Assembly: GCA_963752675.1 (NCBI GenBank)
Contig: CAVVZO010000015.1
Span: forward strand, 564,906 to 628,905
Source: an uncultured Acidobacteriaceae bacterium
Lineage (GTDB): Bacteria > Acidobacteriota > Terriglobia > Terriglobales > Acidobacteriaceae
Length of the DNA: 64,000 nucleotides
Reading direction: 5' to 3'
This document shows, piece by piece, positions 7,051 to 24,304 of this stretch; position 1 is the stretch's first letter, and the number at the start of each line of letters is the position of its first letter. A model generated the notes under the pieces. It did no database searches, was not told the origin of the DNA, and saw only the letters and a program-made list of their open reading frames with translations. The translations under genes and the position numbers were made by a program.

Positions 7051-10000
7051 TTAGCGGTGCGCATTTCTCCCGCGGCCGGCGCTCGAGCTTTTTGGCGCGG
7101 GATCGACGACCAGGGTAAAGTTCTGCTCGGCTGTAAGTGTGCCGGTCTTTTCATCGACTGCGTGGAAAATGACCGTATATGTATCTGCCGTAGTCCCGGG
7201 GGTGACGGTAGTCGTGCCTCCGGCTCCGCCGGTCCCTGAGCCGTTGCTGCTACCGCCGCCACCCCCACAAGCGACCATTCCCGCAAAGAGGACCACGCAC
7301 AGAATGACCGGAGCGAACGATGACCAGCGGCGCCGAGCCGCAGGCAGCCCAGCAAGCAATACAAGCGCGAGCATGCTGGACGCGGATTTTCCCCACATAT
7401 CGGACCCAGTGCTCGCGTGCGCATTTGCCGTGGTAACACCTCGTTGCGCGTGACTGCCTGGGGAAGTGGTCTGGATGGTGACCGTCTGAAAAGAAGAAGT
7501 CGTCGGAGAAGAATACTGGTCGTTGGTGATCGTCACCTGTGACGGCGCGAAGCTGCAGGTGGGCAAATGGATATCACCTGCGTTGCCGGGTTTGACAATA
7601 CAGCTCAAATCCACTGTTCCGCTAAAGCCGCCGAAGCTGGCAACCCGGATCTGGTCTGTGGTCTGGCCACCCGCGTCAACGACCGTTCGGAAGCTTCCAT
7701 ACACGCCTAGAGAGAGACTGCCCGGTTCCGTTGCCGCAGCCTGCTGTGCACGTAACCGTCACGGGTGCGGACGCTTCGGAGGGGAGGAAGTTGCTGTCAC
7801 CCGCAAACGTCGCGATGATCAGGTTTTGCCCAAGAGTCAACTGTGAGACGTCCACATTGACCAACAGGGTGTCACAAATCAGGTTGCCCGTGGCACACGT
7901 GCCGGGTGAGGGGACGCCACTGCCAAGGAGGGTCTGCGTCGTGGCGTCGGTGACGTTAATCACCCCGCTGGGGAAAATCATCAGTGTGGGTGGATTGAGG
8001 GCAACGGTGGCCGTCACGTCTACCTTTCCGACATTGATGGTGGACACGCTCGAGGAAAGGCCAACGCTGGTTGGCGCTTTGAGCACGGTGAAGGCGATTG
8101 GACCCGCGGAACTGGGGTTGTAACTTGCATCTCCGGCATAAGAGGCCGAGATGGCGTGAGTGCCGGCGCCACACAGCAGGTGAAATTCGGCGTTACCGGA
8201 GGCATCGAGGGAAGCCGCATTATTGATGCAGAAGGGGCTTGCGTCGTCCTGGAAAGTGACTGTGCCGGTTGCGTTGGCAATCGGGCTGGCAGCCGTCAAT
8301 TGCGAGACACCGATGGGCACAGCCCGGGGAATGATAAGGGTGCCCAGCGGCACCGTAGCTCCAGCGACGCTGACCAGCTGCCGGCTTGCATTCACGGTGA
8401 GAACGCTCAGCTGCAAAGTGCTGTCTTCAGGCGAAACCGTGAGAGCAACGCCGGGCGAGGTACTGCCCTGGTACTTACCGTCGCCGGCATAGTTGCCAAA
8501 GAGAGAGTAAGTGCCTCCGGGCAATTGCGTGTAACTACCGCTGCCCGAGCCGTTCACGAGAGTGATCGGCAGCGTGCTCCCCATGCCGGCTGCACCGCTG
8601 ATGAGCGCGATGCTCCCTGTGGCCGCCGCAGGATTCACGGCCGCAGCGACATTCACCAGGCTTCCGTGTTGGAAGGTGCTCTTGTCGACGGTGAGACTTG
8701 TGCTGGTCGCAGCACGCACATCGCTTTGCCAACTGTTCGCCAACAGCGAGACGTCCACGCTGCCCAGGCCTGCGGCCAGGCTATAGCCCTGGTTTGTGTC
8801 GTAGCCGGTCAGAAAGCTGTTGGCGCCGCAGTTCGGACTGCCTGCCGCGCAGTACACAGCGTTATTGCTGGTGGTGGGCTTGTGAAAGACCGCCGGCGTG
8901 GTTTGCGCGAGGTTGTACAAGACCCAATTGGCCTGTCCTAAACGGGTCGAAGCGCCGATCTTCTGATTCACGATGGCGAGCATGGCGGCAAACGCCGGGG
9001 CAGAAGCCGAGGTGCCGCCGAATGCATGTATGGTTTCGTTGCCGCTCTGGCACTCTCCGGGTAAACACACGGCCCAGGCCGCATGGTTTTCACCGCTGCC
9101 GGCAAATAGAGACACATCGGGCAGATCGCGCACACCATCGGTGTTACTGGGCGGATAGCTTTGCTGCCAGAGTGGCTTCGCGTACCCCGCAGGAGTGCCA
9201 CTGCTCCAATCGCCGGAGCTGCTGACGCCGCCGCCGCCCGCGACGATGTTGGCTGCCCCGGATTTGTCTTTAAATACTGTGTTGCCGCTCAGGGGACCAG
9301 TTGTGGCTGTGGAGATGTTCCAGACATTTTCCGGGATGTATTTGACGGCGGTGGTGGGACCGCCGGTGTCAGAAGGATTCACATACGTGGCGAAACTTGT
9401 ATTCAACACGTTGAAGTCTGTGCCACCGACCGCGATACTGAACGGGGTAGAAGCCAGGCCGTTGACAGCGAACCCCTGCGTGGCTGGGTTAGGTAAATTG
9501 AAATCGTCACAACCCGCGGGACCAGCGTCGCCGCTGGAAACGGTCACGGTGATTCCTTGCGCGGCGGCCTGCTCCCAGGTGTTGAAGACCTCCTGATTGC
9601 CAGCCGCGCCCTGGTCTGCTTCACAGCCCTGATAGCTGACGCTCAGGAAGCTGACCGTATTATCGTCAACGGCTCGTAGGGCAGCGAGCAGGATGCCGGG
9701 TTGAAACGTAGTATCGGCAGCGCTGTAAACCGTGATGCGCGCTCCCGGCGCCACAGCCCTTGTGACTTCGGCATCCAGAAGAAACTCCGAGTTATTGGCG
9801 CGGGAATCCAAATTTTCCTGGTTGCCGTCATACACTCCGCCCTCGTTGTACATCGGGAGAGCGAACAGGTTTTCGTAATTGTCCAGCGACGTGAAATCGA
9901 TAACGACGTTTTCTACCAGCCCAATATTAATGCCGGTTCCGTCGAGAGGCGCTTGCCCGGGTGGCCAGTTCTTATTGAAAGAATTAGGCGAGTTATAGAT

Positions 10001-10738
10001 CGTGGCTGCATCGCCCGGGCCGACGAATAAGTAGGAAACCCCATTCGAGCTGATCGTCAAGGAAGGGTTGACCCGCTGGTTGGATGCTTTCCAGGTAGTG
10101 GAGGGCCCGGCACGTAACTGTGGGTGCGGCTTGAAGTCATTGAGACCAGTGATACCGGCAACGACAGGCGCGAGTGCAGACGGGATCATAGGATCGGCAG
10201 CGTTGGCCCAATGCAGCGACCCGTTCCGGTCGTAACGACGGATTTGTGTGTGAAAGGCCCGCTGTACCTGGCCCACGGTCCCGGAAAACTCAATCACTGC
10301 GCGGCCCTTGGCGACCTTGGCTACGGCGAAGCCATAACTTTGCAGCCACTGTTGCAGACGGGCCAGATCTGCATCGGACGCTCCGTAGAGCAGGCCAAAC
10401 TGTTCCGGCGTAACGTACTTGCGAAAGTTGGCGGAACCCGGGGTCTGCACTTCCTTGAGGTAGGTTTGCAGGGCAGCTTCTTGTTCCGGGCTTCGTTTGA
10501 CCACGAGCAGCAGCCGCTCGGCTGCCATCCCCTCTGGAGCTGCTCCGCGATCCTGGGCGGGAAGAGCCGCAGGATGAGTGTTTCCGCGTAAGCTGATCAG
10601 CGAGTGCTCATCGATGGCCTGCGTGATGAGAGGACGGGGAGAGGCCAGTAACTGGCAGACAGCGACTGGCGTTGCGAACAGGAGCGAGAGCGCGAACAAC
10701 CGGGGAACATGGCCGGACCGCAGAGCGGGAGAAAGCAT
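7051..10738 (-). pseudogene. Sedolisin (peptidase S53, pro-kumamolisin-type) with multiple Ig-like repeats, with one frameshift in an (AG)n run near 7709-7717
   Basis: The start was trimmed to ATG 10738, which gives signal peptide MLSPALRSGHVPRLFALSLLFATPVAVC. The pro-domain is SLRGNTHP...YVTPEQFGLLYGASDADL...QQWLQSYGF. The catalytic region is GGTSASAPAFAAMLA. The Ig-like repeat sequence continues seamlessly in the +1 frame (ORF 7051-7704: VYGSFRTVVDAGGQTTDQIRVASFGGFSGTVDLSC). Confidence 0.75.
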
Positions 10739-11070
10739 GCTTCCTACACCCGTCAAACGAATTCTGGCGAGTTTGGGCCCAGGGCCACCGCAAACCACGC
10801 GGGGGCACCCACGGAACAAGGCAGAACCTAAACATCCAAATGAACCAGTGCCGGGAGTCTACCCTGCCATTCTGTCCTTTTCAACGCATTTCGCATACAG
10901 GGAGGGTTTCCGCTTCAACTTTTGTAACATTGACGTTTCGCAAGACCGGCTGGACCGTCATGGAGCGAACTCCGGTTTCTGAAGAGTCGTTAACCTTCTA
11001 TCTAAATGCAGTTGTTCTATCCACACGGTTGCCTAACCCATAAGAGTTGCCTGTTCTTACGCGCTGCTTT

Positions 11071-11249
11071 CCAAGCCACAAGCAGCCGCAAACCGAAGCC
11101 TCCACTCTCCCCTTTGTCCTAAGTCCCGTAGGGACGGGATCGCTGGCAACGCGACCGTTCGTTCCGCCCTTTACTTGCCAGGCAAGTCGCGCTCTTGGGA
11201 TGACAAAGGAGAGAGTGGTGGCTTTGGTTTTGCGGCTGCTTGTGCTTGG
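11071..11249. repeat. MITE-like palindromic element: ~50-bp inverted repeats around a ~77-bp centre
   Basis: The left arm is ccaagccacaagcagccgcaaaccgaagcctccactctcccctttgtcc (11071-11119). It matches the reverse complement of the right arm gggatgacaaaggagagagtggtggctttggttttgcggctgcttgtgcttgg (11197-11249). The centre holds two small hairpins, gtcccgtagggac and cttgccaggcaag. Confidence 0.75.
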
Positions 11250-11300
11250 AAGAGCAGCTCGCAATGTGGAGGCCTTTGCCTACCTGTAAACCCTGTGGGA

Positions 11301-13356
11301 TCAGGGTTGCAGGTAGGCGAGGTTATCGAACCGAAGTCTATCTCCATGGGTGAAGTCAAACAGTACCGCAGAACTTGGGTCACGCCAGCCGGTTCTCAGG
11401 CGGCGGAGCTCGCCGGGCTTGATCGTGAAAGCCATTTCACGCACCTCGGGTGAACGAACCGTCACCGTTGCATCCTGGTCTCCGTCGTTGTAAACATCGA
11501 TACCGGCGAAGATGCGCGGCGAAGCAAAGTCGAAGGCGGCCCGGTTCGTTTGCGCGTCCTGCCAGGGCAAGCGTGAAGGTGCCGAACTTTCCGTAGGGAG
11601 TGCCGATCTGCCAGTCGCCTGGTCTCCAATCGATGACACCCGAGGGATAGCCGCCTGCGAGGAGAGTCCCAGCGGCAAGGTGCGGATCATCAAAGGTGAT
11701 GTAAGAGGGGGCGGCCGCTCCGCTTTTACCCTGGATATCCACATCGCGGCCGGTGGTGTGCAGCAGCGTGAGGGTATGGGTCGCATCGTCGAAGGTGTAC
11801 CCCTCGACATCCAGATCTTTGCGGCGGGTGATCGCCTTTCCGCCCACAGATACCGTGGCCGGTACAAAATCCAGGCGGAGCACATCGGTCGATGCGGCAT
11901 CGAAGGTGCTGTATGTCACCGAGCCGGCGCCGTATGCGATTTTTGTGACCACGCTCTGCGAACCCAGCAGATGCGACTCGTCGGCAGGCGCCCAGGAGGG
12001 CACGGCCCAAAAGGCGTCCATCATCCGCCGAGGACCATCCGTGAACTCATCGGTAAACCACCACTGCGTGCTGAAAGGCGCGTGTGCGGCAGCAGACAGG
12101 CCCTGGAAGTAGGTCACCCAGTTGTAGGTGCGGTACGCTGCTTCCTTATACGCCACGTCCCCGGTCTTGGCGTAGTACAGCGCTTCCACCGCGGCCAGCC
12201 TGGAACTGTGACTGTCACAACATTCGTTAGGAGGATTGCAGCAGTATTCTGTGCCACCACTCCCCTGCTCGGTGGTCACGGTTGCGCCATGCACGATGTA
12301 CTTGGGCCACTTAGGCGTGGTCTTGACCCAATCGATCAGCTTGCGCGTGTGCTCCCGCCATTCCGGATCTTTCTCCGGGTGCAAAAGAACGTAACGGGCA
12401 AATTCGAGCGGAATCACCTGGTTCATGTTGTCCATCGAGCCAGGAACATCTTCAAAATAGCCGACCCAGACGTTGTTTTGCATGGGGTATTTCATGAGCC
12501 AGGCCCAGGCGCCTTCGCGCACACGCTGGTAGGCGGCGGTGTCGCCCTGGCCAAGACGCATCAGTTCGTCGAACAGCATGATCGGCTCGACTACGTTGGC
12601 GGAGTAGGGGAACATGCCCTTGCCGCCGGTCAGACTCCCGTCGCGCGCGAAGCAGCGGTAGGGCCAGGGTGAGATGTGTTCATCCCCTGGTTTGTAGTTT
12701 TTGACCAGGGCCTCGGCACAGCGGATGGCTGCTTGCAGGTATTTGGTGTCGCCGGTCATCTCGTAGAGGCGCAGGTAGGCGTAGCCGTCTTCTCCCACAA
12801 CGTGCGGCTCGATAAAATCTTCGCCGTGCTCGCTCCAACCGGTGTAGCGACGAGAGCCGGGGTTGGCCGAGGGGTACGGCACCTCCGACCAGGCATAACC
12901 CGCCGGAGTGAGCCCGTTGGCCAATTCGTAGTCCACCAGGTCCTGAAGGAATGCGACCGTACGCGGATCGCCTGTATACGGGTAAAGCCGCTCAACAAAA
13001 CCCTGCATCATGGCACGCAGATAGCCGGTGGAATTGGCCCAATGCCAATCAGGGAACATTTCGAAGGTGGTGCGGTCATAATCGAAACAGCAGAAGTACC
13101 AGGGAAGGCGCTGCCGATTGCGCTGATCCAGGAGGATGGTCCATTGCGAAAGGAAATAGCCGGCATACGAGTAGCCGGTGTCGTCTGCAATAGGAAACGG
13201 CAGCAGTTTGCCCTGCTTATCCAGAGCCACGGGCCGCCCGGCGATAGAAGGAGCATCGACCGTGGAAACGACTGGGAAGGGCTGCTGGCCGAAGCTGACG
13301 GCCGCGGAGCAAAGTATAACCACCGCAACAGTGGCCGATTTAATAGCTCGTGTCAT
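11301..13356 (-). pseudogene. Secreted helical (alpha/alpha-barrel-like) putative glycoside hydrolase or lyase of unassigned family, with one frameshift at 11565-11567
   Basis: Start ATG 13356 gives signal peptide MTRAIKSATVAVVILCSAAVSFGQQ. The body is a long Trp/Tyr-rich helical domain (YAYLRLYEMTGDTKYLQAAIRCAEALV...AVEALYYAKTGDVAYKEAAYRTYNWV). The last ~85 aa continue in the +1 frame (ORF 11301-11900: QDAQTNRAAFDFASPRIFAGIDVYNDG...). The function is inferred from composition and context only. Confidence 0.55.
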
Positions 13357-14284
13357 AGCGCACCACCAGGATGGTTGAGATAAGAACAATGGCTGCCCCG
13401 CCCAAAGCCGCAGGGTTCAAGCGCTCTCCTAACAAGACTGCTGCCAGCAATACGCCACCCACAGGCACGAGGTAGAGAGAGGTGGACGCGGTCGTCACGT
13501 CGAGATGCTGAAGGGCCTTGAAGAAAAGCAGCATGGAAGCGCCATACATGAAGAACGCAAGGAAAAGAAATGCGGCCCAGCTTTTGCCGTCGAAGTTGAG
13601 GAAGCTGCGCCAGTGGAAGGGTTCCGCCCAGATCAAGAGAGGGATACTGGCTACCGAGGCGGTTACATAGCTGTAGATCAGGATCTCGACCTCCTGATAT
13701 TTCTTCATCAGGCCCTTGCAGAAAACGTTGTAAAAGGCGGACCCAAAGCAGCCGGTGAAGATGAGCAGGTTTCCGGAGAGATACTTCATGGAGCTGAAGG
13801 AAGCCTGGCGTAGATCGCCCACCGAGAGGAACGCTACGCCGACCAGCCCAATCGCGAGAGAGGCAATTCTTAGTGGTGTTAGCCGCTCCCGCAGCATGAA
13901 GGATGCGAGTACGGCGCTGATGACGGGGATGAGCAGGTTGAGGATGGCCCCATTCGACGCCAGCGACTTGCTTATGCCCCATGTCATGCCGAGTTGAGCA
14001 AGCATCTGACCGGCGATACCGGCGATGGCGAAGCGAACCCAATCGCGCGAGGAGGGAGTCACCGAATCCGGGTTCTGCCGCCGCAAACGTAGCAGCAGCG
14101 GCACGAACAGCAGTGTGGTCACATAGAAGGGCAGGAAAGTGATGGCGATGGGGCCAAGATGGGGGTCAAGAACCTTGACCGCGATTCCCTGCCCTGACCA
14201 GATAAGGGACGCCAGCGCCATCAAGAGGAAGTAGAAGAGCGTGACCCGTACGCCTGATTTCGCTGTAGGGGCGTTCACGCTCAT
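13340..14284 (-). CDS. DMT-superfamily (EamA) transporter
   Basis: 314 aa with about 10 TM segments in two EamA-like halves. It overlaps the kinase gene upstream by 4 nt and the hydrolase-like gene downstream by 17 nt. Confidence 0.85.
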   Translation of the reverse strand: MSVNAPTAKSGVRVTLFYFLLMALASLIWSGQGIAVKVLDPHLGPIAITFLPFYVTTLLFVPLLLRLRRQNPDSVTPSSRDWVRFAIAGIAGQMLAQLGMTWGISKSLASNGAILNLLIPVISAVLASFMLRERLTPLRIASLAIGLVGVAFLSVGDLRQASFSSMKYLSGNLLIFTGCFGSAFYNVFCKGLMKKYQEVEILIYSYVTASVASIPLLIWAEPFHWRSFLNFDGKSWAAFLFLAFFMYGASMLLFFKALQHLDVTTASTSLYLVPVGGVLLAAVLLGERLNPAALGGAAIVLISTILVVRYDTSY

Positions 14285-15687
14285 ACCGTAGCCTGCATCG
14301 TGCGAATACCAAACCGATCAGCGCCGATGGAACTTCCCTCGAACACGTAGGGATCAAAATCGCGGAGCTCTCCGTAAGCGGCCACTACCTTCTGGAACGC
14401 CTCTTTGCCCTGGGCTGAACCCAGCACTGCTACGGTGCCGCCGGCACCGCCGCCAGTGATCTTTGCGCCGAATAACTGGCCATCACCCGCGTGCTGCCGA
14501 ACGAGATCGACGATCTGATCGGTAGCCTCTGCGCCCAGCCCACATTGGGTGTAGGACCAATGAGACTGGTACATCAATTCGCCCATCTGGTGGAACGCGG
14601 CGGTGGATGGCGAATGCGAGGCACCGCGAGCCAGCTCGATGAAAAGCTCGATCCGCTGGTTCTCTTCCACGGCATAGCGGGTGCAATCGCGCACCCGATA
14701 CTTCACATCCGCGCGAACGGTTGTGAACGGATCAGGATGAACCGCTCCATGCGCCAGGATGTCGGCACCTGACATCCACTCCGGCAAACGCCGTTCGTAT
14801 TTCGATCGAAACAGCGACGGTACCAGGTTCGAGAGAAAACCATTCCAGCGCGGGTCGCTGTAGCGGGGGATGGCTCCGCTTACATCTTTCCGAATGGGCA
14901 GATTCTCCCACTCGCAGATCAAGCGGTAGCCGATGAATGCAGCAGCCCTGGCCGCTTCATACTCGATGCCTGTGACCGCATGGCGCACGCCGGAGTCGAT
15001 AGCCCAGCACTGCAGACCTTCCGGCAACTTCACCAGCGGGCGCAGTTCACACGGCTGACACAGCAGCGGCAATACGTAACCTTCATCGCCGAGAACCGAG
15101 GCCGCCTGATCCATGATGCCGCAGGCCGATTCCGCAATCACGTTCTCCACCCACTGGCATGCTTCCGCCAACTCGACACCCTCCATGGATATGCCGTAGC
15201 AGGCTGCAGCCGCCTTCATCACGGCCACTTCCACAGCAGCCGATGAGCTCACCCCTTTATTGCAGGGCACTTCGGATTGGATGTAGATGGATGCACCGGA
15301 TTGCACCTGGCCGGGGTATCGCTGGCGGAGAAGGAGAAATGCCCCCAACACGTAGGCCGTCCAGCGTATCTCAGCGCGCACGTTGACCAGTTGTCTTACC
15401 GCGTGTTCGTCGGTGAGCTGGGGAAATTCAAAGGTGACCTGTGGCGACCAGCCTTCCTCGCTCATCTGCGGATTGAGGAAGCTGATTTTCTGATCGGCTC
15501 GCTTCTGTGCCGCCGCCCAGGTGGCTTCACGAATAGTGCTCTCGAACACCAGGCCACCGGTGTAGTCGACATTGCCGCCCATCAGATCAAGCCGGCCGGG
15601 CGCACGGCTGATGAACACGGGAGCTTTCGGTGAGAAGTACTTCTCCTCTCCCCGGATAGCAGCGATCGCTGACTCAAATGCGCTCAC
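14281..15687 (-). CDS. GHMP-family sugar kinase (galactokinase / L-arabinokinase-like)
   Basis: SRAPGRLDLMGGNVDYTGGLVFE is a galactokinase-type signature. PCNKGVSSSAAVEVAV is GHMP motif II. KITGGGAGGTVAVLG is motif III. Confidence 0.8.
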   Translation of the reverse strand: MSAFESAIAAIRGEEKYFSPKAPVFISRAPGRLDLMGGNVDYTGGLVFESTIREATWAAAQKRADQKISFLNPQMSEEGWSPQVTFEFPQLTDEHAVRQLVNVRAEIRWTAYVLGAFLLLRQRYPGQVQSGASIYIQSEVPCNKGVSSSAAVEVAVMKAAAACYGISMEGVELAEACQWVENVIAESACGIMDQAASVLGDEGYVLPLLCQPCELRPLVKLPEGLQCWAIDSGVRHAVTGIEYEAARAAAFIGYRLICEWENLPIRKDVSGAIPRYSDPRWNGFLSNLVPSLFRSKYERRLPEWMSGADILAHGAVHPDPFTTVRADVKYRVRDCTRYAVEENQRIELFIELARGASHSPSTAAFHQMGELMYQSHWSYTQCGLGAEATDQIVDLVRQHAGDGQLFGAKITGGGAGGTVAVLGSAQGKEAFQKVVAAYGELRDFDPYVFEGSSIGADRFGIRTMQATV

Positions 15688-16934
15688 GCAGTTTCTCTGG
15701 CTGCCAGCTCGCCAGCCGCAGCGCCCGAGCCCGCCACCGCCTGAGACGCAACCTCATGAATGCTGTCGATCACGTATTGCACCACATCATTAGACAAGCG
15801 TGGATGGATCGGAAGGCTCACATACTTATGGAACAGCGCTTCCGCTACCGGGCACTCTCCCGGTTGGTGGCCCAGCTTGCGATACACGCTGGTCAGGTGA
15901 ATCGGCATGTAGTGCGACCAGGTCTTGATCTGTTTACCCGTGTAGAGCTCCCACATGAAATCCTCCTTGTTGAGCGAGAAGGACGATTCCAGTAGCAAGC
16001 AGTAGATGTGAAACACATGCTTATTGTGCGGGGCCACGAACGGGAGCGTTAACCCGGGAATGCCGCTTAGACCCTGGGTGTACATCCCGGCAATCTCAAT
16101 GCGGCGCGCATTGAGCTGGTCGAGCTTTTTCAGTTGCACCAGCCCGACGGCAGCCTGCACATCAGTCATGCGGTAGTTGAAACCGATCTCTTCGAAATCA
16201 AGGTACCAATAGCGTTTGCCCATGGGATGGATGGATTCATCCAGTGGCAGATACTTGCCTTTGGGATCGTAGGTCAGGCAGCAGAGTGAACGATGCGACA
16301 GCATGCTTTCGTATAGCGACTTGTCGCTGGTGGTAATGAGGCCACCTTCCCCAAGAGTGACCATGTTCTTCTGTTGATGGAAGCTGAACACCGCCATATC
16401 GCCCAGCGAGCCGGCTTTGCGCCCCTTGTACTCTGCTCCGGCTGCGTGGGCAGCATCTTCGATCACCTTGATGTTGCGAGGCCTCGCCAGATCGTTGAGA
16501 GCATCCATGTCACTGCATTGTCCGTAGAGATGGACAGGCATGATGGCTTTCGTACGCGGCGTGATCTTCTTCTCGACAGAGGCTGGGTCGAGGTTGAGCG
16601 TGCGTGCATCTACATCCGCAAACACGACGGTTGCGCCCAGAACAGCGGCCGCATTCGCTGTGGAGATCCAGCTGATGGGTGTGGTGATGACCTCATCACC
16701 AGGGCCGACCCCGGCGGCGATCATGGCCAATTGCAGGCCGGTTGTTCCCGAGGAGACAGCGAGGCCGTAGGTTGCTCCGCAATACTTCGCGAACGCTTCT
16801 TCAAACGCCTTCACTGCTGGGCCGCAGGAGGGGGCGCCGGCACGCATCACTTCCAGCACGGCTTCCTGTTCTTCTTTGCCGTACGTGGAGCCATGGCCGA
16901 ACTCCAGCTCATGGATAGCCTTGGGTAAGTTCAT
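15684..16934 (-). CDS. DegT/DnrJ/EryC1/StrS-family PLP-dependent aminotransferase
   Basis: GLAVSSGTTGLQLA...GDEVITTPISWISTANA...VIEDAAHAAGA...AVFSFHQQKNM, which includes the PLP lysine context. Start ATG 16934 overlaps the SDR gene stop as ATGA. Confidence 0.85.
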   Translation of the reverse strand: MNLPKAIHELEFGHGSTYGKEEQEAVLEVMRAGAPSCGPAVKAFEEAFAKYCGATYGLAVSSGTTGLQLAMIAAGVGPGDEVITTPISWISTANAAAVLGATVVFADVDARTLNLDPASVEKKITPRTKAIMPVHLYGQCSDMDALNDLARPRNIKVIEDAAHAAGAEYKGRKAGSLGDMAVFSFHQQKNMVTLGEGGLITTSDKSLYESMLSHRSLCCLTYDPKGKYLPLDESIHPMGKRYWYLDFEEIGFNYRMTDVQAAVGLVQLKKLDQLNARRIEIAGMYTQGLSGIPGLTLPFVAPHNKHVFHIYCLLLESSFSLNKEDFMWELYTGKQIKTWSHYMPIHLTSVYRKLGHQPGECPVAEALFHKYVSLPIHPRLSNDVVQYVIDSIHEVASQAVAGSGAAAGELAARETA

Positions 16935-17809
16935 GCAAAGCACCTTTCGATCACCTGATCACAGGATTCGAATTCGAGATCGTAGAGTTTTTGGATCTTG
17001 TCAGTCAGCAGAAAGTGGTCTTCACCGCGTGGAGCGCGGCCGGGTATGGGATCGTCTTTGGGTTGGACCAGGTCGGTCGACACATTCACCCGTCGTGCCA
17101 GGCGACAGCCCAGTTCGTAGCGAGAGACGCTGTCAGAAGCACCCGCGTGATACAGCCCGACAGCTTGTGGATCAGCCAACAGGCGCAGCATCAAGCTGCT
17201 CAGGCAGGCGGCATGGAGCGGATTCCGCTTTTCTGTGGTCGAAAGGTAGAGCGTCTCTCCTGCTTTTAATTTCGCGACCATGCTCTCCACCATGCCCGGA
17301 GCGGAAGAGATCCTCGATCGGCCAAGAACGAGGGCGAAACGGATGATGCAGGCGGAAGGCACCAGCGCCTTGACTGCCAGCTCGGCCCACACTTTTGTTC
17401 TGCCATACACGCTAACCGGGCTCACCGGGTCTTCTTCCCCATAGCCGTGCTGTTTGCCATCGAACACGGCTGCGGTGGAGGTAAACAGCAGGCGAGCGTT
17501 TGCGCGGGCACATGCGTTGGCGACATGTTCCGCTCCGCGTGCATTGATGGCGAACGCCTCAGCCGGCGCCCGCTCGCACCGATCGATATCGGCTATGGCC
17601 GAAAGCAGCAGCACCAGGTCCGGCCGCTGCTCGCTGAACACGCGATCGACGCTTGACGCGTCTGCGATGTCAATCGCTACACTGCCCGTGGCATTGGTGT
17701 TGCGGCTTCCGCAAACCAGATCATACATATCCGCAGTGGTTGCACTCTCGGCTGCGTACCTGCCGAGAAAGCCACCCGCTCCAAGAATGAAAATCCTTTG
17801 CTTCTGCAC
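16931..17809 (-). CDS. NAD(P)-dependent SDR, RmlD-like sugar reductase or epimerase
   Basis: GTG start preceded by GGAG. Rossmann motif RIFILGAGGFLGRY. The overall length and pattern fit dTDP-4-dehydrorhamnose-reductase-like proteins. Confidence 0.7.
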   Translation of the reverse strand: MQKQRIFILGAGGFLGRYAAESATTADMYDLVCGSRNTNATGSVAIDIADASSVDRVFSEQRPDLVLLLSAIADIDRCERAPAEAFAINARGAEHVANACARANARLLFTSTAAVFDGKQHGYGEEDPVSPVSVYGRTKVWAELAVKALVPSACIIRFALVLGRSRISSAPGMVESMVAKLKAGETLYLSTTEKRNPLHAACLSSLMLRLLADPQAVGLYHAGASDSVSRYELGCRLARRVNVSTDLVQPKDDPIPGRAPRGEDHFLLTDKIQKLYDLEFESCDQVIERCFA

Positions 17810-17858
17810 CCGTAACTCCGTACCGATGACCGTTGTAAATCTCAGTGAATGGCTTGTG

Positions 17859-17904
17859 AAAAAAAACAGAGACGGCCCGGTCCCGAGCGGTCGCGCCGTC
17901 TCTG
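17859..17904 (-). terminator. Rho-independent terminator immediately after the TonB-dependent receptor gene
   Basis: On the minus strand the sequence is cagagacggc-(18 nt loop)-gccgtctctg followed by TTTTTTTT. The hairpin starts 5 nt after the TAA stop at 17910-17912. Confidence 0.8.
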
Positions 17905-17909
17905 CCGGC

Positions 17910-20900
17910 TTAGAAGGAATATCTAAGCGCGACCTGGAGCCGCCGGTTGTCGATGGCAGTCGAAGAGACTTGCCCTTCTGCTGAGTCTCCCACCACGTTA
18001 TCCGGAGCGGCGAAGTTGGGATGATTGAAGGTGTTGAACACGTCCGTACGGAACAACACCTGCTGGCGTTCAGTCAGATGAAAGGTCTTGGAGAGCGACG
18101 AATCCAGCTGCTGCTCCCCATCGGCGTGCAACGGATTCACGCCGGATGTGCCGTAAGTCATGGGCGTGGTGTGAATGACAAACGCGTTGGTGTCAAACCA
18201 TTTGGAAACTGTTGGGTTGTTGATCTTGCCATTGCCCACCCGATCCGGGCGATTGGTCTGGCCGTTGTTGAGCGAGGTCGAGTCATTGGCGATGACGTCG
18301 AAGCGCGTGCCGCTACGGACGTGGATCAGGGAAGAATATTGCCAGCCCCCGAGCAAGGCATCGACCACGCGGTTTGCATTGCCCAGGAAGCGCTGCCCGC
18401 GGCCAAACGGAAGATCCTGCCGCAGCTGCGCATTGAAGATGTGAGCAATGTCCTGCTGGGTGGGGCCGTAGTACTGGTTGATATTGGCTGGATCCAGGTT
18501 GTAGCCGTTGGCGAAATTACGCCCGTGAGCGTAACCGGCGTTGATGAATGTGGACTTGCGAATGTTGCCCGCAAAGCGGACGGTCAGCGCGTCATACCAG
18601 GTGCCGGCGATGGATCGGGAGATGGGAATATCGCCGAGTTGAGGGTATTCGTTGATCAGAGGACGCTCGGCGTTGTAGTCGGTCCCCGGCGCGGTGGGTG
18701 GGGCCTGGTTGATGTTGATCGAATGTAGATTGTGCAGTCCGCGGACGTTGAGATAGCCGACATCGACAATCATGCCCGGGCGAATCTCGCGCTCAATGTT
18801 GAGCGTGGCCTGATCAACCCGTTGATTGCGCCAGCCGTACTCCACGCCGCGTATCAGCGCGTTGGCGGGGATCACCAGCTTTCCTGAGTTGTCGTACTCC
18901 GCATTCGCCAGGGGTAAGCCATCGCGGGAGAGCTGGAGAGTGGGGGACAAACTGTTCGGGGTCAACAAAGCCTGCTTTGCGTAGTTGGGGTAGGTCAGGC
19001 CTTCAATGGTCAGAGGGCCGGCCCAGTAGGCCATCCAGTAAGAAATACCGTAGCCGCTACGAATGCTCGTCTTGCCGTGGTCCGGACTCCAGGCGAAGCC
19101 AACGCGGGGTCCCCAGTCGCTGGTATCAAGACCCAGAGCCGGGCTGCGATTGCTGGAGCTGGCGACCACCAACTGGTTGGTGCGCGTATCCCAATTGGAC
19201 TGGCGGTTGTGGCGTTCGATAGGCCGGCTGGTGAGGTCGTATCGCAGGCCGAGGTTCAGGGTAAGCGAGGGCAGGATCTTGAAGTCATCCTGGGCGTACC
19301 AGGCGTTCTGCCAATAGGTCTGGTAGGGCGCACCGGCAGTGAAATGGGCGCGGGCACTGGAGGTCATCGTACCCAGCAGGAAGCTGGGATACGCAATGGG
19401 CTGCACGGCCAGGGCACTGGAGGGATCGCCGCCGCCGTTGTAGCCAACACCGTCGTATGAGGTCATCGCCTCGCTGAAGGTGAGGCTGCCGCGCGGATCG
19501 TCGCCGCCAATTACATCGGCGGAAACATCCACCACGTAGTTGATGTTAGTGCCAGCCTTGATCAGGTGTTTGCCTCTTGTCCAACTGAAGTTATCAGCCA
19601 CCGAAACTGTATTGCTGACAATGTAGCCGACCCAGTCGGGTTCGTTGATAGCCGGCACGCCAGGCATGTAGAACTCAGCCAATCCCTTTGTGGAGGGATC
19701 GTTCGCCAGGTTGCCATTGGGGATGCCGAAGGTGTTGTTCCAGGCTTCAGACAGGCCTTTGGTACTGGTGCGCACGTTGGAGCGATTGAAGGCCAGGCGA
19801 AACTCGTTCATCTTAGTGACGCCGAAATTGTGAAAGTCAGAAAACAGCATGTTCTGGTTCAGAGTTTTCGAGTCGGCATTGCCGCTTTGAAAAAACAGGT
19901 TTACGTTCGTGGTGTTGTCGTTGACTGCATCGAGTACCGTGTAGCGAAAGAAAATACGATCGACACTGGTGGGGTTGTAGTCCAGCCGCGCATCGGCCTG
20001 GTGCGCTGATTGATGGTTGTTGTACAGGTATTGAAGGTTCTGGCTGATCCCGGGCAGGTTGGCAACGCCGAAGATCTTGGCCGAGTTCATCAAGGTCGAC
20101 GAACTGTCCCAACGGCTTTGCGGAATGATGTTGCCGGCGAATGGGGTGGCGCCGATTACATTGCCGTTGCTATCGACCGCGCGAGTGTTGGGATCGTAAA
20201 CCTGCCCATAGGTATTGCCGGCGTCATCGACTTGCCCTGGCACGTATAGCTCAGAGAAATCCCCGGTGAGCATCCTGGAAGTGGGTGCGGTGGTGAATGC
20301 GGGAGAACTGCTGTACAGCAGCGACCCCTGGTAATCCGCAAAAAAGAACAGCTTGTCTTTCAGGATGGGACCACCAATCGCGCCCCCGAATTGGTTCTTG
20401 CGAAACGGAGTTTTCGGCACGCCCACGGCGAAGTAATTGAGCGCATCAGTCGCTTCGTTACGCAGAAACTCAAAAGCCGCACCATGAAATTGATTGCTGC
20501 CGGAACGGGTGGTGATGTTCACCACGGCGCTGCCGGAAAACCCGAACTCGGCGTTGTATTTGCCGGTGTAGACTTCGACTTCCTGCACGCCTTCAATGGG
20601 CGGCGTTACGCTGATGTATGCGTTCTGCGGCTCACGATTGGGCACCCCATCGACGTACACGGAATTGGCATTCGAATCCACCCCACCGATCGAAGCCAGT
20701 TGCGGACGCGTTTGACCGACCGCAGAGCCATTCTCCCCGCCGTTGGTCCCGTAGTTGCCGCTGCCTACTTCGTTGTTTGCGCCCGGTATCAGGTTCATCT
20801 GATAAAGCGGATTTCTGTCCAGGTTGGGCAGCGCATCCAGTTCCTGGTGAGAAAACGTCTGCGATAGCTCTGAGCTTTCGGTCGCCACGTTGATGGTATT

Positions 20901-21266
20901 GGCTTGTACTTCGACCGTCTGTCCGGTGTCGCCGACGAGCAGTGTGAAATCCACGCGGTTGGTGCCGCCGGCATCGACGACGACATTGGTCCGCACGGCC
21001 TTTTGAAACCCTTGCTTTTCTACATCGACGTGGTACGTGCCGGGTACCAGGAAGTTAATCAGGTATTCCCCATTGTCGAGGGTTGTGGTCTGGGTCACTA
21101 CGCCGGTGCCATCATTTGTCGCAGTAACGGGCACGTTGGTGATGACAGCGCCGCTTGAGTCGGTGACGAATCCCGACATCTTGCCGGTGTTGATCTGTGC
21201 TAAACAGAGAGGGGAGCCCACTAGAAGTACTATTGCGCACAACAGGCCGTGACGTTGCATAGACAC
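17910..21266 (-). CDS. TonB-dependent receptor with an N-terminal carboxypeptidase-regulatory-like domain
   Basis: Signal peptide MSMQRHGLLCAIVLLVGSPLCLAQ. CarboxypepD_reg-like segment SGFVTDSSGAVITNVPVTATN...GEYLINFLVPGTYHV. The 1118-aa beta-rich body ends in the OMP-type terminus LQVALRYSF. Confidence 0.85.
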   Translation of the reverse strand: MSMQRHGLLCAIVLLVGSPLCLAQINTGKMSGFVTDSSGAVITNVPVTATNDGTGVVTQTTTLDNGEYLINFLVPGTYHVDVEKQGFQKAVRTNVVVDAGGTNRVDFTLLVGDTGQTVEVQANTINVATESSELSQTFSHQELDALPNLDRNPLYQMNLIPGANNEVGSGNYGTNGGENGSAVGQTRPQLASIGGVDSNANSVYVDGVPNREPQNAYISVTPPIEGVQEVEVYTGKYNAEFGFSGSAVVNITTRSGSNQFHGAAFEFLRNEATDALNYFAVGVPKTPFRKNQFGGAIGGPILKDKLFFFADYQGSLLYSSSPAFTTAPTSRMLTGDFSELYVPGQVDDAGNTYGQVYDPNTRAVDSNGNVIGATPFAGNIIPQSRWDSSSTLMNSAKIFGVANLPGISQNLQYLYNNHQSAHQADARLDYNPTSVDRIFFRYTVLDAVNDNTTNVNLFFQSGNADSKTLNQNMLFSDFHNFGVTKMNEFRLAFNRSNVRTSTKGLSEAWNNTFGIPNGNLANDPSTKGLAEFYMPGVPAINEPDWVGYIVSNTVSVADNFSWTRGKHLIKAGTNINYVVDVSADVIGGDDPRGSLTFSEAMTSYDGVGYNGGGDPSSALAVQPIAYPSFLLGTMTSSARAHFTAGAPYQTYWQNAWYAQDDFKILPSLTLNLGLRYDLTSRPIERHNRQSNWDTRTNQLVVASSSNRSPALGLDTSDWGPRVGFAWSPDHGKTSIRSGYGISYWMAYWAGPLTIEGLTYPNYAKQALLTPNSLSPTLQLSRDGLPLANAEYDNSGKLVIPANALIRGVEYGWRNQRVDQATLNIEREIRPGMIVDVGYLNVRGLHNLHSININQAPPTAPGTDYNAERPLINEYPQLGDIPISRSIAGTWYDALTVRFAGNIRKSTFINAGYAHGRNFANGYNLDPANINQYYGPTQQDIAHIFNAQLRQDLPFGRGQRFLGNANRVVDALLGGWQYSSLIHVRSGTRFDVIANDSTSLNNGQTNRPDRVGNGKINNPTVSKWFDTNAFVIHTTPMTYGTSGVNPLHADGEQQLDSSLSKTFHLTERQQVLFRTDVFNTFNHPNFAAPDNVVGDSAEGQVSSTAIDNRRLQVALRYSF

Positions 21267-21306
21267 AGTCCTCCTGAATTTTCTGCGGACACCTTCTCGG
21301 GGTGGG

Positions 21307-22089
21307 CTATTCCGCGATCAGTACTTTTGTTAACTTGCGGAGCTTCTTGATCTCCGCTTCTTTAACCCCTTGGTCGGTGATTACCAGGTCGCACTGCTCG
21401 ATGGGGCAGAAGCGATAGACCGCTTCGATCCCAACTTTGCTGCTGTCGATCACCAGGACTCTTTGCTTGCCTGCCTGCAAAATCGCCTTCGGCATCTCCT
21501 GGTCATAGTTCATGGCGCCGCGAGCAAACGATAATGCCGCCGCGCCGAAGAAGACCCGGTCTGCATATACGCTGCCCAGGGCTTCGTCGACACTGCTGCC
21601 ACAAAGGTCATGGCTCACGCGCCGATACACACCGCCGGTCAGGCGCACCTGCACTCCCGTGCTGCCTGCCAGTTCCTCCAGCACCGCGAGTGACGCCGTG
21701 ATCACCACGACATCCCGCCTGGGCGCGAGATGCCTGGCGATGTACTGCGTCGTGGTCCCGGAGTCGAGAACAACGGTCTCCCCATCCTGGACCAGCCCGG
21801 CTGCCGTGCGACCCAGCACATCTTTCGCGGCCGACATCTTTTCTGAGCGCTCGTGGAAAGTTCTTTCCATCGAGCCGGAAGGCGCGACCATCGCACCGCC
21901 AGGCGTGCGAATGATGAGGCCTGCGTCGCTCAATTTGTAGAGCACGCGGCGCACAGTCATTTCGGAAACCGAGAAGCGCTCGGCGATTTCACCAATTCCT
22001 GCGGAGCCCTTCTCCTTGATGTGCAGAAGAATTTCTCCCTGCCGTTCTTCCGAGGAGCGTGGCGCCTGGCGTATGTTCAAAATTCCCAT
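21307..22089 (-). CDS. DeoR/GlpR-family transcriptional regulator
   Basis: The start was trimmed to ATG 22089. HTH motif ERQGEILLHIKEKGSAGIGEIAERFSVSEMTVRRVLYKL. C-terminal sugar-phosphate-binding fold VVLDSGTTTQYIARHL...VITASL...VIDSSK. Confidence 0.85.
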   Translation of the reverse strand: MGILNIRQAPRSSEERQGEILLHIKEKGSAGIGEIAERFSVSEMTVRRVLYKLSDAGLIIRTPGGAMVAPSGSMERTFHERSEKMSAAKDVLGRTAAGLVQDGETVVLDSGTTTQYIARHLAPRRDVVVITASLAVLEELAGSTGVQVRLTGGVYRRVSHDLCGSSVDEALGSVYADRVFFGAAALSFARGAMNYDQEMPKAILQAGKQRVLVIDSSKVGIEAVYRFCPIEQCDLVITDQGVKEAEIKKLRKLTKVLIAE

Positions 22090-22330
22090 AGCTGGTGTTA
22101 ATGAATAACAGACCACAAGCCGGGAGGGTCGTCAAGGAATTTCGCAAAGAGCAGAGGAGCTTGGCGGCGACTGGATGAGAACAAGTTCCTCGCGGCGAGG
22201 GTGGAGATGTCATCCACACTACGAGTTGCAGGTGACTTCGAGAGCAGCTATATCGGTGGCAAGCTAGCGTTTCTGCAGGACTTCAGAGCTGGTTTATTGG
22301 GAGAGGGCGTGACTACTCTGGCAAGAGTGG

Positions 22331-22366
22331 CAAAAAGCAAAGGTGCCTCCGAAGAGGCACCTTTGC
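22331..22366 (-). terminator. Rho-independent terminator downstream of the phosphate transporter gene
   Basis: A 13-bp perfect stem, gcaaaggtgcctc/gaggcacctttgc, carries a UUCG tetraloop on the minus strand. It is followed by TTTTT and lies ~20 nt after the stop at 22385. Confidence 0.85.
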
Positions 22367-22384
22367 CGTGCTTGCGAACGCTGT

Positions 22385-23947
22385 CTATTTAGAAACGAAT
22401 TGAGTGAAGACCCAGAACAGGCCCGCCGACATGAGCCCTGCGACCGGCAGGGTGAAAACCCAGGCGGCAGCGATGTTGCGGATGGTGGACCACTGCAGTC
22501 CGCTCTTGTTAGCCAACATGGTGCCGGCAACACCCGAGGAGAGCACGTGGGTGGTGCTCACCGGCAGACCAAAGTTATCTGCCGCAAGAATGGTACACAT
22601 CGCCACCAGTTCTGCCGATGCGCCCTGGGCGTAAGTGAGATGGGTTTTACCGATCTTCTCACCCACAGTAATTACGATCCGCTTCCAACCAACCATAGTG
22701 CCCAACCCCAAGGCGAGTGCTACCGCCACCTTGACCCAGGGCGGAATGAACTTGGTGGAAAGGTCCAGCTTCTTTTTGTAGTTGGCCATGACCGCGGCTT
22801 CTTCCGGAGAAAAGCTAGGGTTCTTGGCTTTCCCCATCAATCGCAGCGCTTCACTCGAAATGTACATGTCATTGCGCACGTTCGATTGCTGATTGGACGG
22901 TACTCCTTTGAGCGTCTTGTACTGCGCGACTTCGTGCTCGATCTCCAGCACCATCTGGCGTTCCGCCAGGACAGTAGTCGGGGTGAGCTTTTTGGTCTGC
23001 AAATACTCCGTAAGATCCGCACGCGGGTCGCCCATGACCGCAGTGGACTCCACATGGGCCGTCAGTACTTTGGCAGCCTGTTCTGATACTGCAACGAAGT
23101 CCTGTACCTGGCTGTACCCGACAGCGTGGTTCAAGGCATATGCGGTGGGCACGGTGCCGATCAGGATGAGCATGATGAGCCCCATGCCCTTCTGGCCATC
23201 GTTCGAGCCATGGGCAAAACTCACACCAGTGCAGGTCATGACCAGCAGGCAGCGAATCCAGAAGGGCGGCGGAGCATCGCTGGAGGGTGCTTCGTACAGG
23301 CGCTTGTCTTTGACCAGAAGCTTGAACAACAGCAGCACCAGGCCAGAGAAGACAAAGCCGACGATGGGCGAGATCAGAAGAGCCTGAAAGACCTTACCTA
23401 CCTGCGACCAATCCACACCGGTGGTGCCTTTCGTCGCTGACATGAACTGGTTGGCAAGCCCTACACCGATGATGGAGCCGATAAGGGTATGCGAGCTGGA
23501 CGCGGGCAGACCAAACCACCAGGTGCTCAGATTCCAGATGATGGCCGATACCAGCAGGGCGAATACCATGGCAAATCCGGCGCCAGAACCGACGCGGAGG
23601 ATTAACTCAACCGGCAGCAACGAAACTACTGCGAAGGCCACAGCCCCGGACGAGAGCATGACGCCGATGAGGTTCCACAAGCCAGACCACATTACGGCTA
23701 CGTGCGGTTCGAGCGAATGAGTGTAGATCACGGTAGCTACTGCATTGGCAGTGTCATGGAACCCATTGACAAACTCAAAACCGAGCGCGATGAAGAGCGC
23801 AACGCCCAGCAGAACATAGGCCATGGTGGACGCGGTGCGGCCTGCCGACAAAACATCGCCAAGGAACTGCGATGCGGCCCAGCCGAGACCGCCAACAAGT
23901 ACAAGAGCGAAGATGATCATCGGCATCTTGCCTTGTTTTCTGTTCAT
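22385..23947 (-). CDS. pitA: Inorganic phosphate transporter, PiT (PHO4) family
   Basis: NGFHDTANAVATVIY and AHGSNDGQKGMGLIML are the two PiT signature repeats. The large central loop is typical of the family. The start was trimmed to ATG 23947, and the upstream extension is non-hydrophobic. Confidence 0.85.
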   Translation of the reverse strand: MNRKQGKMPMIIFALVLVGGLGWAASQFLGDVLSAGRTASTMAYVLLGVALFIALGFEFVNGFHDTANAVATVIYTHSLEPHVAVMWSGLWNLIGVMLSSGAVAFAVVSLLPVELILRVGSGAGFAMVFALLVSAIIWNLSTWWFGLPASSSHTLIGSIIGVGLANQFMSATKGTTGVDWSQVGKVFQALLISPIVGFVFSGLVLLLFKLLVKDKRLYEAPSSDAPPPFWIRCLLVMTCTGVSFAHGSNDGQKGMGLIMLILIGTVPTAYALNHAVGYSQVQDFVAVSEQAAKVLTAHVESTAVMGDPRADLTEYLQTKKLTPTTVLAERQMVLEIEHEVAQYKTLKGVPSNQQSNVRNDMYISSEALRLMGKAKNPSFSPEEAAVMANYKKKLDLSTKFIPPWVKVAVALALGLGTMVGWKRIVITVGEKIGKTHLTYAQGASAELVAMCTILAADNFGLPVSTTHVLSSGVAGTMLANKSGLQWSTIRNIAAAWVFTLPVAGLMSAGLFWVFTQFVSK

Positions 23948-24304
23948 CTTTTCCTGGAGAAGAGAAGTTTTCCCCGGGGGTGTTAACACTGCTGAAGAAA
24001 CATCGGTCACGCGCGCACACTCCACTGTTAGGTATTCGCACGCTACCAAAGCCGATGGTGGGTATTGTTAATTGCCAGCCCAAGAGTGTTAAAGTTCTGC
24101 GAATTAAGGTAAGAGTTCAAAATGCATACACCCCCTCGGACCCGTGGCTGTCCATGGTGCGCCATATCTCACGACGGCTTCTTGGTCGGGAGCTGTGGGA
24201 ATCAATGACTTAGCCAGTAACTGCTTACTAGTAAATACCGGTCAGTGGGTCGAGACGGTAGAAACCCGCCGGGGACAGTGGGAGAGAGATTTTGCGGGGT
24301 GCGG

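Follow-up and report, generated by a model that had tools for sequence, protein, structure and literature searches.

The Arn, Pse, Per and Rml routes act on nucleotide-bound sugars and contain transferases. Among their enzymes, ArnB, PseC and perosamine synthase, pyridoxal phosphate (PLP)-dependent aminotransferases of the DegT/DnrJ/EryC1/StrS family, aminate C4, while RmlD, a short-chain dehydrogenase/reductase (SDR), reduces a 4-keto group; SDRs of the RmlD type are known as reductases. We analyzed a gene cassette in a 64,000-nt stretch of contig CAVVZO010000015.1 from an uncultured Acidobacteriaceae bacterium of soil. This whole stretch is referred to as the window, and all coordinates are positions in it unless they carry a locus identifier. 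In the cassette (region 11301–22116, all genes on the minus strand) the same two enzyme families occur, with the same predicted 4-keto/4-amino and 4-keto/4-hydroxy chemistry. Here, however, they come without a recurrent linked nucleotidyltransferase, dehydratase or transferase and are instead linked to import functions and to an anomeric sugar kinase. The substrate is therefore probably not a nucleoside diphosphate (NDP)-sugar. We tentatively propose that the cassette lets the cell take up a rare sugar and catabolize or salvage it independently of nucleotides, the likeliest substrate being a 4-amino-4-deoxy sugar of the L-arabino or D-galacto type. As such it is probably an undescribed way to use a rare amino sugar.

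Families were assigned by Pfam and NCBIfam profile searches of the window proteins. The minus-strand order is a DeoR-family regulator, a TonB-dependent receptor, an RmlD-like SDR, a DegT-family aminotransferase (hereafter DegT), a GHMP kinase, an EamA-type carrier and a secreted (α/α)6 protein, which we call X. A first-pass annotation, made from the sequence alone, had named these seven families and had not recognized the combination as a known pathway. The profile searches agreed with the family assignments, with Pfam confirming GHMP kinase, DegT, RmlD_sub_bind and EamA, but the last gene is not the single open frame that had been assumed, because it carries a +1 frameshift. The overlaps of 4, 4, 4 and 17 nt annotated between the genes from SDR to X are indeed present, given the ATG at 16934 as the start of DegT. 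Judged by profile scores, every part of the cassette belongs to a known superfamily and none reaches the cut-off of a named enzyme. Each cassette gene is present once in the genome. Searches by homology and structure and in the literature yielded no known pathway into which the combination falls. The literature search found no description of the gene combination, of a bacterial arabinokinase, of an amino-sugar transamination pathway or of the catabolism of 4-amino-4-deoxy-L-arabinose (L-Ara4N); since most subscription journals lay outside its coverage, this is weak evidence of novelty.

The DegT gene (15684–16934) encodes a protein that matches PF01041 with 404 bits (cut-off 19.8) and contains the PLP-binding lysine motif SFHQQK. 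The models of named NDP-sugar enzymes all stay below their equivalog cut-offs: PseC with 334.8 of 423.5 bits, ArnB with 272.7 of 631, PRK11706 with 234.8 of 375 and LegC with 220.2 of 420. By these cut-offs the protein is not a PseC, ArnB, WecE or LegC. The best matches in the PDB are perosamine synthetase (263 bits) and ArnB (224–230 bits). NtdA (138 bits) and a scyllo-inosose aminotransferase (PDB-entry 7b0d, 223 bits) are also among the matches and are more distant than the NDP-sugar 4-aminotransferases. NtdA uses 3-oxo-glucose-6-phosphate in the kanosamine pathway. Together with the scyllo-inosose aminotransferases and KdnA it illustrates that enzymes of the DegT fold can use sugar phosphates or free cyclitols and sugars. 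The kanosamine and aminocyclitol routes are biosynthetic and employ GFO/MocA-type dehydrogenases, whereas the cassette has an RmlD-like SDR. The DegT subfamily of the cassette is marked by a long, shared, motif-rich stretch ahead of the GFNYRMTD motif and is unusually conserved, with 66–88% identity across phyla.

The SDR (16931–17809) matches RmlD_sub_bind with 175 bits; the rmlD equivalog TIGR01214 gives 159.9 bits, below its cut-off of 224.05. Its closest PDB matches are RmlD and MAT2B (approximately 80–88 bits), and the motifs GAGGFLG (GxxGxxG) and YGRTK (YxxxK) are present. We predict a sugar 4-ketoreductase or 4-dehydrogenase. C4 is the site of action of all the nearest characterized relatives, namely PseC, ArnB and perosamine synthase for DegT and RmlD for the SDR. 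For this reason the two enzymes would convert the 4-hydroxy, 4-keto and 4-amino forms of a single sugar into one another, and the kinase would phosphorylate its C1.

The kinase (14281–15687, 468 amino acids) is an arabinokinase-like anomeric sugar kinase of the GHMP superfamily. GHMP_kinases_N, GHMP_kinases_C and GalKase_gal_bdg score 66, 22.7 and 38.2 bits, all above their cut-offs, and these domains, the signature and an aligned catalytic Arg/Asp pair place the protein in the anomeric sugar-kinase branch. The galactokinase equivalogs were all missed (PRK05101, 155 versus 499 bits; TIGR00131, 124.5 versus 226.65 bits). Compared with human GALK1 (PDB-entries 1wuu and 6q8z), the protein retains residues equivalent to Arg37, Asp46, Asp186 and Tyr236 and has Gly-Asn in the place of Glu43-His44 (GGN for GEH). 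Because the catalytic residues are retained and the galactose signature is replaced, the protein looks like an anomeric aldose kinase that is not a galactokinase. A separate, canonical GalK-like gene lies on contig C12 of the same genome.

The closest solved relative of the kinase is "AbGHMP" (PDB-entries 9ulx and 9uly, 372 bits; human GALK1, 91 bits). No paper on AbGHMP or 9ULX was found in the literature covered, which did not include most subscription journals. Plant L-arabinokinases are 33–38% identical to the cassette kinase over 95% of the protein. Plant ARA1, AbGHMP and the cassette kinase have in common the GHMP anomeric-kinase fold, the RAPGRLD..MGG signature and the lack of the galactokinase Glu-His pair. 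They differ in three motifs: GGIADYSGS, APCGVMDQ and G(A/S)DYGSVR in plant ARA1 and AbGHMP are GGN(V/D)DYTGG, SACGIMDQ and GIEYEAARAA in the cassette kinase. By identity the window protein falls into the same clade as the plant enzymes, yet by its motifs GGNVDYTGG and SACGIMDQ it is not of the ARA1 type. It lacks an N-terminal GT-like domain, and its partners are DegT, the SDR and a carrier of the drug/metabolite transporter (DMT) superfamily instead of a UDP-sugar pyrophosphorylase.

By these motifs the kinases form two groups. Group a (GGIADYSGS, APCGVMDQ) comprises plant ARA1, AbGHMP and bacterial kinases 40–43% identical to that of the window. The bacterial members are found in Leloir-like clusters with a mutarotase, GalT, an ABC importer and a GalE-like epimerase (L088 and L089 only). 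Group b (GGN(V/D)DYTGG, SACGIMDQ, GIEYEAARAA) contains the window kinase, DegT-kinase fusion proteins described below, and DeoR-kinase-EamA modules without SDR and DegT from two genomes of the same family. The Leloir pathway resembles the cassette in that import is followed by anomeric phosphorylation. Compared with the Leloir-like sister clusters, however, the cassette has DegT and the RmlD-like SDR in place of GalT and GalE, and a DMT carrier in place of the ABC importer; neither the Leloir pathway nor the plant salvage route includes an aminotransferase.

The carrier itself (13340–14284) matches Pfam EamA with 147 bits in two repeats and TPT with 33 bits, and is a candidate inner-membrane protein. 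Among NCBIfam models it comes closest to TIGR00950 (carboxylate/amino acid/amine transporter), with a score of 71 bits that does not reach the cut-off.

We surveyed the locus by scanning one genome per species, which gave 353 matching stretches, and kept the best 80 loci. Sufficient upstream flank was available in 69 of these, the downstream side was testable in 73, and 37 had 8 kb on both sides. SDR and DegT lie directly upstream of the kinase on the same strand in 60 of the 69 loci, and EamA lies directly downstream in 63 of the 73. Of the 37 fully flanked loci, 34 contain an X-family protein, 24 a receptor orthologue with at least 45% identity and likewise 24 a DeoR orthologue by the same threshold. 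The 80 loci stem from several families of Acidobacteriota, from Planctomycetota, Verrucomicrobiota, Hydrogenedentota and Armatimonadota, and from a few bins whose label is doubtful. Further families each recur in about 12 of these loci at most. The first-pass annotation had made its proposal depend on synteny in relatives, and conservation of the four-gene core SDR-DegT-kinase-EamA across phyla is strong. Relatives of the kinase number in the thousands, and the best 120 clusters are 69–99% identical to it and nearly all 468 amino acids long. Within the phylum the distribution is patchy: relatives with E ≤ 1e-100 occur in 6 of 401 sampled genomes and, the genome of the window aside, are sister forms of 41–48% identity. 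Such patchiness fits an accessory catabolic trait.

Nucleotidyltransferase and glycosyltransferase genes are lacking in the window, as had been noted in the first-pass annotation. No linked nucleotidyltransferase was seen in 79 of the 80 related loci either, which bears only indirectly on the substrates of the SDR and DegT. The eight NTP_transferase domains of the genome, searched against the 80 loci, gave one weak match in one locus, and a single, non-recurring GT4 gene was found. GalT had no match in the 80 cassette loci; its only matches were in the sister loci L087–L089. A search for UDP-sugar pyrophosphorylase (PF01704) gave no match even in control genomes and is uninformative.

These data bear on the alternative of an ordinary NDP-sugar modification cluster for O-antigen, S-layer or exopolysaccharide (EPS) that happens to lie beside a receptor, with kinase and carrier as unrelated neighbors. 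The SDR (175 bits) and DegT (404 bits) do belong to families that are classically NDP-sugar enzymes, but the RmlD, PseC, ArnB and other equivalog models all remain below their cut-offs. Moreover, the four-gene core is held together in at least five phyla without a 4,6-dehydratase, a flippase or a recurrent nucleotidyltransferase or glycosyltransferase. Its genes and X are tied by three overlaps of 4 nt and one of 17 nt, and DegT is fused to the kinase in another lineage. We consider this alternative very improbable.

The fusions were found by a search of longer proteins. At least 10 protein clusters (891–969 amino acids) combine a complete N-terminal DegT with a C-terminal kinase. In P0279, the only fusion that was compared, the halves are 51% (DegT) and 48% (kinase) identical to the window proteins and the subfamily motifs are common to both. 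The fusion proteins (P0275–P0284 and P0370; locus L090:8001–10868) form one group in the kinase tree, which has long branches and was used only for this grouping. Neighboring genes on the fusion contigs look eukaryotic and include LSM, a tRNA intron endonuclease, an EF-hand protein, a split DEAD-box helicase and a CAP59-type transferase. Judged from the protein sequences, the fusions show that DegT and the kinase are functionally linked. A further candidate, P0274, was rejected as a frameshift artifact because GDPD and SDR genes are split on its contig, and the long kinase reading frames in L034 and L063 proved to be no fusions.

In five genomes of Verrucomicrobiota and Hydrogenedentota the kinase-EamA pair has no adjacent SDR-DegT pair. 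All five carry a related DegT elsewhere, 49–53% identical to that of the window. An SDR gene adjoins it in three of these genomes, and a carrier of the major facilitator superfamily (MFS) likewise in three. The two genomes whose module consists of DeoR, kinase and EamA alone contain only generic DegT paralogues of 39–42% identity.

Two accessory families recur more widely. GDPD phosphodiesterases occur in 12 of 85 loci, upstream of the SDR gene in Planctomycetia, in some Acidobacteriota between receptor and X, and following the receptor in sister modules. Examples adjoining a receptor or SDR gene are L085:15226–16044, L086:3953–5017 and L072:6206–7894. A 355-residue IMPase-like protein (motif DPIDGT, score below the Pfam cut-off; e.g. 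L001:2376–3443) is a neighbor of 12 cassette loci and of each of the three Leloir-like ones. It shares 53% identity with the N-terminal portion of IMPase-kinase fusion proteins, in which an arabinokinase-like kinase is joined to this phosphatase-like domain; the IMPase-like family was seen at L087, L088, L089 and L091. Other neighbors are sporadic, with 2–5 loci each, and were left out of the parts of the system: HpcH aldolase, MFS carriers, penicillin amidase, class-III aminotransferase, IlvD/EDD dehydratase and DUF4450.

Both recurrent accessories would suit a cyclitol as the substrate. In that case inositol or inosamine would be freed from glycosides or inositol phosphodiesters, interconverted via inosose by the SDR and an aminotransferase of the scyllo-inosose type, and phosphorylated, resembling the early steps of the streptidine route in either direction. 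Streptidine biosynthesis indeed combines a DegT-family aminotransferase and a kinase with a dehydrogenase and an IMPase-type phosphatase, the IMPase-like protein is fused to related kinases, and the DegT matches include scyllo-inosose aminotransferases such as 7b0d. The kinase, on the other hand, retains the anomeric-kinase residues of galactokinase and sits in the clade of plant L-arabinokinases, and its sister forms adjoin the aldose-handling mutarotase, GalT and GalE. The nearest relatives of DegT are NDP-hexose and NDP-pentose 4-aminotransferases, and the genome of the window has neither a GDPD nor an IMPase-like gene. A cyclitol substrate is thus quite improbable in our judgment.

Protein X, which has a signal peptide, is encoded at 11301–13356. 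This region of 2056 nt is not a multiple of three and is not one open frame: the frame starting at 13356 ends at 11437, and the conserved C-terminal 80 residues are encoded in a different frame that runs to 11301. At approximately 11555–11559 the window carries an extra base compared with locus L005, whose kinase is 98% identical at the protein level and whose DNA is approximately 90% identical in the aligned stretch, and compared with contigs from two metagenome studies, which stem from relatives that differ at 74 bases over 1.3 kb and at 60 bases over 0.7 kb. The extra base is peculiar to this assembly. The resulting frameshift may be a real inactivation or an assembly error and would cut the last β-sandwich domain. 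The L005 contig (CAZZVD010000019.1) bears the whole locus, and its bin is labeled Acetobacteraceae; since all other close relatives are Acidobacteriaceae, it is probably mis-binned or mislabeled.

The intact X orthologue P0121 (683 amino acids) has no sequence match in Pfam, NCBIfam or the PDB; the best Pfam model for X is GH88 with 15.8 bits (cut-off 26.6), and GH127 does not match. An AlphaFold2 model of P0121 (pLDDT 89.7) consists of an (α/α)6 barrel followed by C-terminal β-sandwiches. In VIA-align it superimposes with Z-scores of 22–27 over 300–350 residues on cellobiose 2-epimerase, GH76, GH88 and GH105, and a Foldseek search with the X model also matched GH127 and GH146. Among named atlas clusters the nearest is GH127-like; PF07944 occurs in 52% of its members, and the TM-score is 0.87 when normalized by the length of the atlas model. 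The model therefore has the six-hairpin glycosidase fold of the clans with GH8, GH15, GH76, GH88, GH105 and GH127; a shared fold alone does not show activity. The long form of X linked to the cassette has a conserved CCxxPxxCC motif, presumably not arranged like the catalytic Cys/Glu-Zn site of GH127, and a locus can contain up to four X paralogues. The family has more than 1300 relatives among representatives of 50%-identity clusters and no Pfam model. Many members are parts of large extracellular proteins, in which a Pfam scan found only accessory domains of the Ig, Fn3 and lectin types and no clue to a substrate. From the model, X is probably a periplasmic glycoside hydrolase, or possibly a lyase, and the family is probably a new one among the glycosidases. 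In one acidobacterial locus X is followed by a protein of approximately 1150 residues with DUF4450 and an MGH1-like glycoside-hydrolase domain (L001:14664–18104). The same type of protein follows a separate SDR-DegT-MFS unit in a verrucomicrobial genome (L096:10445–13924).

At the upstream end, the receptor (17910–21266) is a TonB-dependent outer-membrane protein of the acidobacterial type, with OMP_b-brl_4 at 632 bits, an N-terminal CarboxypepD_reg domain at 73 bits and Plug at 23.4 bits, just below the cut-off of 23.9. A hairpin (17859–17904) begins 5 nt past its stop codon and is followed by U8. RNA folding gave −27.8 kcal/mol (z = −2.99) for this candidate intrinsic terminator or attenuator, a long-loop hairpin that a terminator scan had missed. 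Orthologous loci retain a hairpin between receptor and SDR despite changes on both arms. In view of this hairpin the seven genes need not share one transcript, and the five genes from SDR to X may be expressed by attenuated readthrough or from a promoter of their own. A simple sigma-70 scan found no promoter in 11000–22500.

The regulator (21307–22089, with the longest reading frame from 22116) belongs to the DeoR family (HTH_DeoR, 50.2 bits; DeoRC, 133.6 bits); its best NCBIfam match is AgaR with 169.9 bits against a cut-off of 260, and no named equivalog was reached. The start at 22089 is likelier than that at 22116, because the latter falls inside a conserved upstream block; the start at 22089 yields 260 residues, matching the L001 orthologue. 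The block, CTTGAC-N17-TGTGGTCTGTTA at approximately 22090–22150, stands immediately before the DeoR start and is conserved in 15 loci. It could be a promoter with a very short leader, a DeoR operator, or both.

In its overall design the cassette resembles polysaccharide utilization loci and acidobacterial TonB-receptor loci, with a receptor, a hairpin, periplasmic glycosidase-fold genes, an inner-membrane carrier, cytoplasmic enzymes and a repressor of the sugar-phosphate type. It differs from them in that no SusD-like gene was seen, the glycosidase-fold family has no Pfam model, and the enzymes of the cytoplasm belong to nucleotide-sugar-type families. The neighbors of the cassette on either side are a sedolisin-type (Pro-kumamolisin) peptidase of 1047 residues with Ig-like repeats (7676–10819) and a PHO4-family phosphate transporter (22385–24049), neither of which is kept beside it in other genomes.

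Based on these results we propose the following route. The TonB-dependent receptor would import a glycan or glycoconjugate fragment, from which periplasmic enzymes (the six-hairpin glycosidase X here, and GDPD as well in other genomes) would free the monosaccharide. The EamA carrier would bring it into the cytoplasm and the arabinokinase-like kinase would trap it as the 1-phosphate. DegT would then transaminate the amino group away, yielding a 4-keto sugar, and the RmlD-like SDR would use NAD(P)H to reduce this to an ordinary sugar, either free or as the 1-phosphate, so that the cell would gain carbon and nitrogen. DeoR repressors sense sugar phosphates, and the DeoR of the cassette would sense a phosphorylated intermediate. 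The substrate, the position C4, the catabolic direction, the order of the steps and the form (free sugar or 1-phosphate) used by DegT and the SDR are what we infer here.

Two orders of steps can be envisaged. If the kinase acted first, DegT and the SDR would use the 1-phosphate, which would mimic an NDP-sugar in truncated form; this order fits the DegT-kinase fusion and the close pairing of kinase and carrier. Alternatively, DegT and the SDR would start from the free sugar and feed an amino analogue into a kinase that normally takes the neutral sugar, an order that fits the group-b motif in DegT-less genomes and the MFS carriers beside separate DegT loci. In the fully specified version the anomeric phosphate would serve as the handle: the kinase would make the 1-phosphate of an imported 4-amino-4-deoxy sugar, and DegT and the SDR, as descendants of NDP-sugar enzymes, would deaminate and reduce this sugar 1-phosphate with no NDP-sugar involved. 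We regard this version as unlikely.

The catabolic direction is favored because it runs downhill (transamination followed by reduction with NAD(P)H), because RmlD-type enzymes are reductases and because the context is one of nutrient uptake, comprising the receptor, the secreted glycosidase-fold proteins, GDPD in some loci and the DeoR regulator. In the opposite direction the cassette would serve biosynthetic salvage: an imported L-arabinose or galacto-type sugar would be phosphorylated, oxidized at C4 by the SDR, aminated by DegT, activated by a GalT or nucleotidyltransferase encoded elsewhere, and built into S-layer glycan, EPS or lipopolysaccharide (LPS) of the cell itself. Oxidation, amination and phosphorylation would follow the order of the genes, and the DegT-kinase fusions fit adjacent steps here too. 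GalT, GalE and nine genes with NTP_transferase domains are present elsewhere in the genome, and the clustering of sister kinases with GalT and GalE indicates that 1-phosphates from this kinase clade can be uridylylated. The 80 loci, however, show no recurrently linked nucleotidyltransferase, GalT or glycosyltransferase, the established role of RmlD-type SDRs is reduction, and nutrient use is what a DeoR repressor linked to a receptor, GDPD and secreted proteins of glycosidase fold typically indicates. The scattered occurrence in 6 of 401 genomes also speaks against biosynthetic salvage, which we regard as rather unlikely.

Several observations weigh against catabolism of an amino sugar. The order SDR-DegT-kinase-carrier fits the making and export, or the activation, of an amino sugar equally well, and the nearest models of the EamA protein are exporters of amino acids and metabolites. 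No onward route is evident from a pentose or 6-deoxyhexose 1-phosphate. Group-b kinase-EamA-DeoR modules (GGNVDYTGG) occur in genomes without a cassette-type DegT, and the kinase substrate may therefore be a neutral sugar and not an amino sugar. The MFS carrier beside three of the five separate DegT loci hints that DegT and the SDR may act on a free, imported compound. A terminator sits between the receptor gene and the enzyme genes. Finally, the X gene is frameshifted in the genome of the window, which may point to decay of the locus or to an assembly error at the extra base.

For the proposed catabolic route, the recurrence of glycosidase-fold and phosphodiesterase accessories suggests a sugar source with both glycosidic and phosphodiester bonds. 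L-Ara4N is held in LPS by a glycosidic and a phosphodiester linkage. Speculatively, L-Ara4N from the LPS of neighboring bacteria is a candidate substrate, and it would, equally speculatively, also suit the arabinokinase clade of the kinase and the ArnB-like DegT.

Coupling of import and an anomeric kinase to DegT- and RmlD-type enzymes without a nucleotidyltransferase would define a new logic of amino-sugar metabolism. If this is true, the same chemistry would be carried by a single DegT-kinase fusion enzyme in some microbial eukaryotes. The enzymes could serve the synthesis of amino sugars and sugar 1-phosphates without nucleotide activation, and X would point to a new glycosidase-fold family of more than 1300 sequence clusters. 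For soil Acidobacteriota, Planctomycetota and Verrucomicrobiota the cassette would give functions to many genes now listed as "galactokinase family" and "DegT". Amino sugars are a large pool of soil organic nitrogen, and the cassette would bear on how soil bacteria recycle them.

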